Below are positions 30,001 to 33,000 of a DNA stretch of 64,000 nucleotides, piece after piece. The DNA is taken from the NCBI RefSeq assembly GCF_053078305.1, contig NZ_CP166879.1, one strand, 5' to 3'. The position numbers were made by a program. The number at the start of each line of letters is the position of its first letter. The first letter of the stretch is position 1.

Positions 30001-33000
30001 GTACGGTGCACTCTCACCGTACAGGGAGCGTGCATCTTTTTCAGGGGGCATGCTCTTATGAAAACGAAAAAACATACTTCACGTACCGCGATTAAAACTC
30101 CGGAACGTGACCTGTATCAGCTTGTGACCGACAGGGTTGTTACGGCCATTGAAAATGGTGTGCCACCCTGGAAACGTCCCTGGCGCTCTGCGCGTAATGG
30201 CGTGGGGCTTCCGGAGATGATGCCGGCAAATGCCCTGACCGGGAAGCCTTATACAGGGGTGAACGTCCTGTTGCTGTGGCTGGCCGCGGATGAAGCCGGG
30301 TATGTCAGCAATGACTGGCTGACGTACCGTCAGGCGCAACAACTGGGTGGCCACGTCCGTAAAGGGGAGGTGGCCACGCTGGCGGTGATTTACAAAGACT
30401 GGAAAAAACAGGCTGTGGATGAACACGGTAACCGGCTGACGGACAGTGAGGGGGAGCCTCTCATGGAAATCGTACCGGTACTGAAATCGAATCCTCTGTT
30501 TAATGTGGGGCAGTGTGACGGTTTACCTGAACATCTGATGGTGAAGGCGGAAGGCAGCGCGGATGCACTGCCGGCAGATACCTTCAGTGAGCGGGTGCTG
30601 CAGGTACTGAATGGCAGCGGCGTCAGCGTCTCGTCACTTCCACAGGACAGGGCATTCTACCGGCCTGATCTTGACCGTATCGTGATGCCACTGTCGTCGC
30701 AGTTTGACCAGGTGGCTGATTACTGGACCACCCTGCTGCATGAGCTGGTACACAGTACCGGTCATGAAAAGCGCCTGCGGCGGGTGGGGATAAGTACCTT
30801 TACCGGTCGCAAAAGCCCGGAATATGCGTTTGAAGAGCTGATTGCCGAGATGGGCAGTGCTTTTCTGTGTGCACATCTCGGGATTGCCGGTGACGTACAG
30901 CACGAAAGTTATATTGACGGATGGCTTAAGGTTCTGAAGTCTGACAAAAAAGCGCTGTTTCGCGCCTGCCGGCAGGCACGTGAAGCATCAGAGTATTTAC
31001 TGACGCGGCGAACTTCGCAGGAGTGCGCAGCATAATTTTTACTACCGGTGGCGGTTATAACCTGACCGCCATTTATCCCGTGAGGGCATTGTACCTCACG
31101 GGACAATGCCCTCTTTTTACATCTGTATAAAAAAGAGGAGCGTAAACAATGTCTGAATGGTGCAAAAACCGTTTTGAAATTACCGGTAAATCAGTCTGTC
31201 TTGATGTACTTACACAGTGGATTGAAGGGCGTGAGACCCCGCGCTACCGTCATGCCATACAGCAGAGTATACAGCTGTTTCTGGCCGGTTGTGCAGGGCT
31301 GGTAAAACCCACACGGACGACGCAGTATCCGCCATATCCGGCGCTGGTTCGTCAAGGAACGGGGTTGTCATCTCCGGCTAACCAGGCGTTTGAGCAGTGG
31401 CTGGGGTTGCTGGTAAAAAATGCCGTTCTGGATGGTGAAACGATAAAGACCATTGAGCGTCTTTATCACCAGTCATGTATCGGCGCTGTTCGCTGGGGTA
31501 ATCTGCCGGATAATGCCAGGGAGATCATCACCACGCTGATGAGCCGTCAGTATTCTGACTGGTTTGGTCTGGCCGGGCTGAGTGAACACATTGATGCAGA
31601 AGCCTGCTGGAGCTGGTTGTCGGATTACCCGGAACAGGCGCAGCCCTGTGACATGCTGATGGTCATACCCTCCCGTCTGGCTACAGAGCTGAATGGTTCA
31701 GGTGGACTGCTGCAGGGTATTTCCACAACGACCAGCCTTTACAGCCGGATATACGGTGTGGAGTGGCCGTCAGGAAATAATGTTCGCCATGCGCGTGATG
31801 AGATGAGCAGTCTGGTGCTGCTGATCGACACGCCCTGGTATCCGCCTTCAGGCGAACTGGTTGGTGAGATCTCGAAGGTGTTTGACTGCGAGGTCCGACA
31901 CTGGTACAGCGAGCCGGTACACGGTATACAGGGTTACAACTGTTACGATGGCGGAGAGCATACGGACAGTGATCTGCAGGCCGAATGGCCGGGCAGGGAA
32001 ACACTTCCACAGCCCCGACTGTACCTGGTGGAGGAGTGCGCTGAAGAACAGACGAAAGCCGCACCTTTACCGGTTCCTCTGGTCTCAGCCCAGTAATTAA
32101 CCTCCGGGTATCATGTCCGTGATGCCCGTTTTATCAACATTTCAACCCGAAGGGGAACACCTGTTCCCCTGTCCGGGCCATGTGTTCCCTGTTTTTACGG
32201 AGAAAACATGGCCACCATGACTGACCATCAGAAGGAGTTCATTTCGTTGTTTAACCGGACAGCCTGTTATCACAAACGTCATAAGGTGTTTGAAGACTTT
32301 GTCAGCTGTAGTGTGATTGCCCTGGAAAACCGGCTTCAGTTCAGTGAGGCCCGGGAACAGAAGTATCTGCGGATCGTCAGTGGTTATGAAAAGCAGGATG
32401 TTATCCACATTGCGCATTTGCTTGCTCATGTCATTGAGGGACTGGAGCAGGGATTCTGTGATTTTCTGGGCAGTGTGTTCATGCAACTGGAACTGGGGGA
32501 TAAATACCGTAGTCAGTTTTTCACGCCATGGAGTGTGGCCAGCATGATGGCACAGATGCAGATGGGGAATGTGAAGGCGTTGTTTGAGAGTAAACCCTTT
32601 ATCACGCTCAGTGAACCTGCCTGTGGTGCCGGCAGTATGATTCTGGCAATGGCTGACACCCTGAACCGTTCGGGGTATCCGGCATACCACAGGATGTGGG
32701 TGTCGGCAACGGATATTGACCCGCTGGCAGCCGGCATGGCGTATATACAACTGTCGCTGTGTGGTGTGGCCGGAGAAGTGGTGATTGGTAACTCGCTCTG
32801 TAATGAGCGACGCCGCGTACTGCTGACTCCCGGGCATTACCTGGGAAACTGGGACCATCGTCTGCGTCATCTTCAGGAGCAGAATGTGGCATGATGCAGA
32901 ATGTTTTATCACTGCGCCAGTCTTCGGACTGGCGTTTTGTTCAACTGCCAGTTCCCTGAATGTTTGATTTGTTCAATAAAGCCTGTTTATCAATAAATTT

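Follow-up and report, generated by a model that had tools for sequence, protein, structure and literature searches.

A half-methyltransferase encoded among the establishment genes of an integrative conjugative element, and its protein family

The window analysed in this study is a stretch of 64,000 nucleotides (NCBI RefSeq assembly GCF_053078305.1, contig NZ_CP166879.1), an integrative conjugative element (ICE) that carries in its establishment block a gene for a protein which we call the half-methyltransferase (32208..32894, plus strand, stop codon included). The gene encodes 228 amino acids, its product is RefSeq WP_001562711.1, annotated as 'N-6 DNA methylase', and the identical coding sequence is annotated in Escherichia coli FHI_NMBU_10. 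A preliminary description of the locus, made from the DNA alone, had reported this open reading frame (ORF) and three peptide blocks in it (FFTPWSV, EPACGAGSM and TDID), all of which are real, and had called the product a methyltransferase-like protein with motifs for binding S-adenosylmethionine (SAM); we agree, since motifs X, I, II and III are kept. The SAM site is retained, motifs IV–VIII and a recognition domain are missing, and DNA methylation is therefore most unlikely. We believe that the protein most likely binds SAM but does not methylate DNA.

The protein and its motif order

Relatives were grouped in clusters at 50% identity, and conservation was taken from an alignment of 143 representatives with pairwise identities of 33–50%. 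The protein begins with an all-helical domain (codons 1–93, 32208..32486, plus strand, as are all motifs below; helices 7–18, 24–43, 47–58, 62–80 and 86–93), which holds the family-conserved residues D30, F31, E50, Y53, Y60, D85, L87 and G88. Motif X follows as FFTPWSV (residues 104–110, 32517..32537), with the family consensus GQFFTP and at least 97% conservation of Q103, F105, T106 and P107; it was aligned to the GQFFTP/GEFFTP of BsaXI, EcoR124 HsdM and StySJI HsdM, to the GQYFTP of EcoKI HsdM and also to M.BseCI. Motif I, EPACGAGSM (residues 136–144, 32613..32639), is the glycine-rich SAM loop after strand 1 and was aligned to the DPACG.G of HsdM and M.BseCI; position 136 is E or D in 143 of the 143 representatives, and P137, G140 and G142 are found in 142, 142 and 138 of them, respectively. 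TDID (residues 168–171, 32709..32720) provides the acidic residue that ends strand 2 (163–169 in the model), and GNSL (residues 194–197, 32787..32798), at the end of strand 3, is motif III, with the family form GN[ST]L and counts of 140/143 for G194, 142/143 for N or D at 195 and 138/143 for L197. The order X (FFTP), I (EPACGAG), II (TDID) and III (GNSL) is that of gamma-class N6-adenine methyltransferases, and conservation reaches 90% or more at each of the SAM-contacting positions T106/P107, E136, G140, G142, D169 and N195.

The preliminary description had placed TDID where the catalytic (D/N/S)PP(Y/F) motif would stand. This assignment does not hold: D169, present in 142 of the 143 representatives, pairs in the profile alignment with the D of 'GVDN' in StySJI HsdM, while Q181-L-S-L pairs with 'MNLYL' and motif III with 'EDSL' of the same protein. 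Judged from this alignment, TDID is motif II, with the acidic ribose-binding residue after strand 2, rather than motif IV. The description was right that the canonical catalytic motif is absent, but no substituted tetrapeptide takes its place; instead, everything after motif III is gone throughout the family.

Since motif III lies at residues 194–197, motif IV would need to follow residue 197, and the protein ends at residue 228, 31 residues past motif III. A (D/N/S)PP(Y/F/W/H) tetrapeptide was found nowhere in the 228 residues and in just 3 of the 143 diverse relatives, each time at a different, unrelated position. The Pfam N6_Mtase match (PF02384) was weak in score and covered profile positions 24–118 of 311 only; among 18 other relatives scanned, it stopped at 115–121 in 17 and extended to 141 in one. 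Judged from the extent of this match, the model and the relatives, motifs V–VIII and the complete seven-strand catalytic domain are not present. With motifs IV–VIII, the protein is thus without the strands by which such enzymes bind the target adenine and activate it. The Pfam scan of the protein gave no further domain for target recognition, and neither hsdS nor hsdR was found near the gene in the window or at 10 further loci. The score with the NCBIfam model of Type I HsdM (TIGR00497) was 11.9 bits against a cut-off of 242.75, and hhalign aligned the protein to EcoKI HsdM over motifs X–I only, EcoKI having a large insert. In the PDB search, the single sequence gave chance matches only, and the methyltransferase matches came with the family profile. 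A canonical motif IV elsewhere in the protein was looked for and not found, and no non-DNA methyltransferase family gave a better match in the Pfam, NCBIfam and PDB comparisons. The protein derives from the N6_Mtase/HsdM fold but falls outside that family on motif IV, motifs V–VIII and the recognition domain. Its motifs show it to be a stand-alone front half, the part that binds the cofactor, of a gamma-class (HsdM/TaqI-type) N6-adenine DNA methyltransferase.

The AlphaFold2 model of the window protein, built with the 143-sequence alignment, had a predicted local distance difference test score (pLDDT) of 97 and a predicted template modelling score (pTM) of 0.94, and the same fold was predicted for a relative at 42% identity. 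The model has four strands only (132–136, 163–169, 188–195 and 200–206), followed by helices 208–212 and 215–227. The predicted fold is thus an N-terminal helical domain and the first three Rossmann-like strands, which a further antiparallel strand and a pair of C-terminal helices close off.

The last strand and the T207-P208-G-H210 segment (residues 200–210, 32805..32837) form a hairpin partner of strand 3 and then a helix N-cap. T207 is invariant, P208 is 92% conserved, and the family has His, Tyr, Phe or Trp at position 210. We considered T207-P208-x-H210 as a degenerate NPPY, given its plausible spacing from motif III and the aromatic residue at position 4, and ruled it out by the hairpin register and by the pairing of 209/210 with 186/164. 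Four residues separate strands 188–195 and 200–206 in the model, and helix 208–212 begins at P208. In the covariation analysis (mean-field, 141 effective sequences and hence noisy, 24,976 pairs ranked), the couplings 193–202/203, 192–201 and 190–204 gave an antiparallel hairpin register, H210–W164 ranked 2nd and G209–G186 ranked 5th. Compensating substitutions were found, matched in size and type at 164–210 and 186–209: H or W at 164 occurs with H210 and Y or F at 164 with Y or F at 210; H186 occurs with A209 and G186 with bulky residues at 209; V or I at 193 occurs with R202 and H193 with W or Y at 202. The covariation showed no coupling of the last strand or TP-x-H to strand 1, on the motif I side, and the 131–215 pair indicates that the C-terminal helices touch the strand-1 edge. 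Secondary structure and covariation together make the last strand an edge hairpin on strand 3, with a probable strand order of 3'-3-2-1. TP-x-H would then lie opposite the SAM site, by the N-terminal ends of strands 2 and 3, and the most plausible role for T-P is to N-cap helix 208–212. The family is without any motif IV equivalent.

In a sub-clade of 15 of the 143 representatives, all four covarying positions 164/186/193/210 are histidine (W/G/I/H in the window protein), which suggests a metal site at the sheet edge opposite the SAM pocket.

Family, tails and genomic setting

A search at E ≤ 1e-3 gave at least 3,872 clusters with the module of about 215 residues, 368 of which also pass E ≤ 1e-30, and the best 150 cluster matches align across nearly the whole query. 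It is carried by 2,211 of 72,556 plasmid records (about 3%), of which 1,512 are conjugative, led by Klebsiella, Enterobacter, Acinetobacter and Pseudomonas, and by 86 of 5,426 complete E. coli genomes. In phages it is rare (12 of 50,697 phage records), and the best PHROG match is 5696, 'unknown function'. Relatives from Klebsiella, Salmonella, Pantoea, Erwinia, Dickeya and Xenorhabdus have the same end residue, and comparison with the 76%-identical Salmonella SGI-4 homologue gave a nonsynonymous rate (pN) of 0.14 against a synonymous rate (pS) of 0.71, indicating purifying selection. The window gene itself is an ordinary family member.

The C-terminal tails divide the family. In 117 of the 143 representatives, more than 25 residues follow W215, and about 40% of the representatives have a disordered tail, rich in A, E, P and S, with QLxLF at its end (QLSLF, QMSLF, QLDLF, QISLF etc.). 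The pattern Q[LIMVF]x[LIMF]F occurs in 53 of the 117 long-tailed representatives, and in 35 it stands at the very C-terminus, compared with 0.04 expected from shuffles; examples are P0146 (residues 227–257) and P0133 (residues 331–335). The tail of the modelled relative is a low-confidence coil with a short terminal helix over QISLF. QL[SD]LF is the consensus for binding the beta sliding clamp, and the QLxLF tail, as a sequence, resembles such a motif. None of the 26 short-tailed representatives has a clamp-like motif, including the window clade, that is, the whole integrative-element clade, and the window protein ends in ...HLQEQNVA, a 13-residue tail without one. This short-tailed clade keeps its core under purifying selection, so the core function needs no clamp.

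Two tails carry other sequences. In P0165 (residues ~245–275), there is a second, miniature 'EPACGTGQM ... NPPH' segment, like an appended fragment of another methylase. In P0133 (residues ~250–330; locus L007, 7702–8709), a 'KlcB_3rd' domain (PF27190) and QLSLF are appended to the module, and the same domain is also found in alphaproteobacterial plasmids, in hypothetical proteins. Homology of the module itself to KlcB was considered and rejected: hhalign of the family profile with the N-terminal part of RP4 KlcB gave a probability of 0.3%, and the two are unrelated.

In the window, the half-methyltransferase gene belongs to a same-strand array with an Integrase_1 protein, hypotheticals, ArdC and DUF1281. 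The ArdC-family anti-restriction gene (30061..31035, plus strand) lies two genes upstream and encodes an ArdC-N domain that binds single-stranded DNA and a zincin-like MPTase-PolyVal peptidase (Pfam E 1.7e-36 and 5.4e-38); it is assigned to the ArdC family by annotation in a related genome. With these matches (E 1e-36 to 1e-38), the placement in an anti-restriction block given in the preliminary description was borne out. The DUF1281/Api92-like gene (31149..32096, plus strand; Pfam E 6e-75) lies directly upstream; judged from the Dickeya, Pantoea, Xenorhabdus and Salmonella loci, no other gene accompanies the half-methyltransferase as regularly in the integrative-element clade. In the E. coli genome of locus L001, the stretch from DUF1281 to the terminator is identical to window 31100–33100; between ArdC and DUF1281, L001 has two extra genes (19214–19966), one for a protein with LPD29, a polyvalent-protein-associated domain, and one for a small hypothetical, which window 31036–31148 is without.

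Between the DUF1281 and half-methyltransferase genes lies a structured leader of about 110 nt (32097..32207, plus strand), whose predicted RNA fold (32097–32212) has a minimum free energy of −49.7 kcal/mol and a z of −6.1. It comprises a terminator-like hairpin followed by a T run, found by the scan for terminator-like sequences (32105–32128), a second hairpin (32146–32177) and a third that starts at 32178 and extends 4–5 bases past 32207, in which GCCAUG pairs with CAUGGC over the start codon; all are on the plus strand, as is the Shine–Dalgarno (SD) sequence GGAG (32199–32202). The block AAGGGGAACA...GTGTTCCCC-TTTTT-SD is kept in five homologous ICE loci, and no Rfam family matches the leader. 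By its predicted pairing, the leader looks like an attenuator or a translational control element. Downstream of the gene, an intrinsic-terminator-like hairpin with 9 pairs, 6 of them G-C, and a T-rich tail (32914..32945, plus strand) stands 20 bases past the stop codon.

A transposase pseudogene lies about 100 bp downstream of the half-methyltransferase gene, and a cargo of about 19 kb (~33100–52200; locus L001, 21996–42001) splits the establishment block from the helicase/relaxase/integrase end, which consists of a UvrD-like helicase (52354–53904), a TraI_2 relaxase (53891–55378) and a tyrosine integrase (55413–56483). Chromosomal speC-like, nupG and mltC genes lie beyond the integrase. This cargo starts at the transposase remnant and contains a gene cluster for the use of sialic acid (nan), the genes for subtilase cytotoxin (subAB) and YadA-like adhesins. 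Transfer genes are found at 1–8 kb of the window. A second cargo inside the element, of the two-partner secretion (TPS)/contact-dependent-inhibition type (CdiA/CdiB-type; 11345–22582, minus strand), encodes a CdiA-like protein of 2,981 residues with a TPS domain, haemagglutinin repeats and a PT-VENN pre-toxin domain, together with an HlyC-type acyltransferase ORF and a ShlB/FhaC-type transporter.

The loci of relatives have related arrangements. The array in integrative elements reads [ArdC or ArdB/KlcA-type]–(RadC, CbtA-like)–DUF1281–half-methyltransferase–helicase/TraI_2 relaxase/integrase. For example, the Xenorhabdus gene lies directly before relaxase and integrase, with ArdB/KlcA-type 'Antirestrict' genes, a CbtA-like gene and DUF1281 upstream, whereas in Dickeya two or three genes, a UvrD-like helicase among them, precede relaxase and integrase, with RadC, a CbtA-like gene and DUF1281 upstream. 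The Pantoea and Salmonella SGI-4 elements have ArdC, DUF1281 and the half-methyltransferase in this order. F-type plasmids of Klebsiella and Citrobacter carry the gene in their leading region, third from traM/oriT and on the psiB/psiA strand, in the order psiB-psiA-...-half-methyltransferase-antirestriction-SLT-traM, and its neighbours include a homologue of the DNA polymerase III (Pol III) theta subunit, a ParB-like protein, PsiB and PsiA. Read from gene order, the family stands in conjugative establishment or leading regions, and the window keeps the integrative-element order despite the roughly 19 kb of inserted cargo.

Fusions were also found. Three clusters (P0138, P0152 and P0154) and PHROG 23459 join ArdC-N, MPTase, a CbtA-like domain and the half-methyltransferase module, and this domain order mirrors the gene order of the unfused arrays. 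P0193 carries the module ahead of a complete methyltransferase domain with NPPF, and one multidomain protein of 4,104 residues contains the module. In P0138 and P0154, the CbtA-toxin-like domain (residues ~270–337) lies between the ArdC peptidase and the half-methyltransferase, and in unfused arrays (loci L008, L009 and L012) a separate CbtA-like gene precedes DUF1281; this suggests that the 'toxin-like' CbtA domain belongs to one effector set with them and not to a classic toxin–antitoxin module.

Function and rival explanations

Of the three options in the preliminary description (inactive, active on another substrate, or a decoy), 'inactive as a DNA methylase, possibly a decoy' fits best, but it needs qualifying: the SAM-contacting residues are all strongly conserved, which makes SAM binding look like part of what the protein does. 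Our tentative reading, to which we give a probability of about 40%, is that the protein is a non-methylating, SAM-binding, HsdM-like module for anti-restriction or establishment. We speculated that the half-methyltransferase is expressed with ArdC upon entry of the element into a new cell. The SAM-bound protein would then mimic the front half of HsdM-type subunits, which is the mechanism that we prefer, and would act on host restriction complexes of this methyltransferase class, Type I above all; the contact site could be, for example, the HsdM N-terminal bridge or the surface that contacts HsdR. As the outcome, restriction would be blocked, or the ArdC protease would be recruited or assisted. 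In many relatives, though not in the window protein, the QLxLF tail might tether the module to the beta sliding clamp at the site where duplex is made from the incoming strand.

We propose mimicry because of the role of ArdC against Type I systems, the bridging role of the HsdM N-terminus and the effectors fused to ArdC. ArdC had to be present in the recipient for a Type I hsdRMS system to be overcome (PMC7213743). HsdM's N-terminal domains form a bridge between the two M subunits and may contact HsdR, and mutations there change the discrimination of methylation state (PMC2647291). The domains to which ArdC/MPTase is fused in polyvalent proteins are effectors of early invasion (PMC5512222).

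Several points weigh against this proposal. HsdM is attached to HsdS by C-terminal helices that the module does not have, and it could therefore not take the place of HsdM there; moreover, no Pfam match to the HsdM_N domain was found in the protein. The strict conservation of the SAM residues is unusual for a pure decoy and suits an enzyme or a SAM-dependent switch at least equally. The clamp-motif tail points to a replication-coupled role in which restriction is not necessarily involved. About 4 of the 11 inspected loci have no annotated anti-restriction gene nearby, and adjacency to ArdC is not universal. The strand topology comes from secondary structure and the covariation of 141 effective sequences, and the literature search gave no experiment on a family member and no binding partner.

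A wider claim, which we make with more reserve, is that the family forms a hitherto unrecognised class of SAM-loaded, non-methylating counter-defence or establishment effectors of conjugative elements, which would work by mimicry of the HsdM complex (alone or as the targeting arm of ArdC) or by SAM destruction. In about 40% of lineages they would be tethered to the clamp, at the point where the transferred strand turns into duplex DNA open to attack.

The first alternative, which we consider doubtful, is a replication-coupled establishment factor, that is, a SAM-sensing or SAM-dependent adaptor that works at the replisome or beta clamp while the complementary strand of the incoming element is made or while its replication begins, the window clade having lost the tether. 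The abundance of QLxLF-type tails, far above the shuffle expectation, and their modelled form of a low-confidence coil with a terminal helix are consistent with such a factor, as are the Pol III theta homologue, ParB-like protein, PsiB and PsiA beside the F-type genes. However, the window protein and the whole integrative-element clade are without the clamp-like tail yet have a core still under purifying selection, and restriction is what the association with ArdC, by linkage and by fusion, suggests.

The second is that the protein is a SAM-cleaving lyase or hydrolase, which would lower SAM and thereby disable SAM-dependent restriction (Type I, Type III, Type IIG and BREX) after transfer, like the unrelated T3 SAMase. 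T3 SAMase relieves Type I restriction. All SAM-contacting motifs are kept while all acceptor-binding elements are lost, the invariant or nearly invariant residues D30, E50, Y53, Y60 and D85 of the helical domain, and also T207, lie outside the assigned roles, and the gene is a leading-region gene among anti-restriction genes. The predicted leader, which occludes the start codon, would moreover suit a product that is harmful when made constitutively. On the other hand, no similarity to a known SAM lyase or hydrolase fold was found, and a diffusible metabolite gives no reason for a clamp tail or an ArdC fusion. By covariation, T207 and H210 lie at the sheet edge opposite the SAM site and are therefore unlikely to be catalytic residues for SAM. 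On balance, SAM cleavage is unlikely.

That the protein remains a methyltransferase is also quite unlikely, be it as half of a split enzyme that a partner protein or dimerisation completes or as an enzyme for a non-DNA acceptor bound by the helical domain. The conserved SAM-binding residues and the public label 'N-6 DNA methylase' agree with this possibility, the P0193 fusion shows association with real methylases, and leading-region methyltransferases are a recognised class (PMC11541004). But the protein has no motif IV, and P0193 carries a complete domain of its own, which is a better fit for a regulatory half-module. The split enzyme was set aside, as no recurring partner gene that could supply motifs IV–VIII lies beside the module in 11 loci, and the fold is closed and highly confident, with its C-terminal helices on the strand-1 edge, so there is no obvious open edge for complementation. 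We know of no class I methyltransferase that works with strands 1–3 alone.

Finally, the pseudogene nearby and the weak Pfam score might raise the suspicion that a Type I or Type II methylase gene has decayed here and lost its function, cut, for example, by insertion of the neighbouring transposase, but such a remnant is effectively excluded by the family data: relatives in six genera share the end residue without a transposase nearby, 3,872 clusters share the architecture, pN is far below pS, the pLDDT is 97, and the gene has its own SD and terminator.

The public label 'N-6 DNA methylase' is probably wrong for the whole family, on which a full-text literature search found no paper. At minimum, this annotation inflates the counts of plasmid methyltransferases, and a correction is due. 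Leading-region 'orphan methylases' are now read as protecting the plasmid by methylation, and this family is without the parts for that. Its carriers include resistance plasmids of Klebsiella, Enterobacter and Acinetobacter and integrative elements with virulence cargo (here subAB). If the half-methyltransferase is a true anti-restriction or establishment factor, it would offer a new handle on the entry of resistance plasmids and pathogenicity islands into restricting hosts, and the family may identify the missing partner or target of ArdC.

Comparison with known systems

The half-methyltransferase does not belong to the known anti-restriction families ArdA, ArdB/KlcA, ArdC and Ocr; its matches in Pfam, NCBIfam, PADLOC and PDB are methyltransferases only. 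The best sequence and fold matches are the gamma-class enzymes (PF02384: HsdM, Type IIG/IIB/ISP, BREX PglX and M.TaqI-like), which share the motif order X-I-II-III and the key residues and likewise have a helical domain ahead of the Rossmann-like fold. Unlike these enzymes, the half-methyltransferase has no NPPY/F, strands 4–7, target-recognition domain, HsdS partner or C-terminal HsdS-binding helices, and it is capped by an extra antiparallel strand and two helices. The lmo1582/YtxK-like putative adenine methyltransferase (PDB 2f8l) differs in having a complete domain of 323/344 residues, with an identity of just 13%.

ArdC and the polyvalent proteins share the early-invasion genomic setting, and ArdC neighbours the module or is fused to it, but ArdC is not homologous to the half-methyltransferase. 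In polyvalent proteins, the methylase module described is a full DarB-type enzyme linked with LPD36 and a helicase (Iyer et al. 2017, PMC5512222), and we found no description of the half-module in that paper.

Leading-region methyltransferases are a recognised class of 'orphan' enzymes, taken to protect the plasmid by methylation (Samuel and Burstein 2024, PMC11541004; also Fomenkov et al. 2020, as cited there). Family number 558 in the supplementary table of PMC11541004, with 85 members, has the same mix of annotations. The half-methyltransferase family has the same location and database label but is without the parts for DNA methylation.

Two further groups can be compared by function. Type I restriction is overcome by two small proteins of invaders, lambda Ral via the modification subunit and phage T3 SAMase via SAM; the analogy to the half-methyltransferase is functional only, with no similarity in sequence or fold. 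In eukaryotes, the catalytically dead methyltransferase folds of METTL14, DNMT3L and SAMTOR have been reused as binding partner or SAM sensor, and SAMTOR keeps SAM binding without catalysis. These proteins are unrelated to the window protein in sequence, and each has a complete seven-strand fold; unlike the window protein, none of them is a half-domain.

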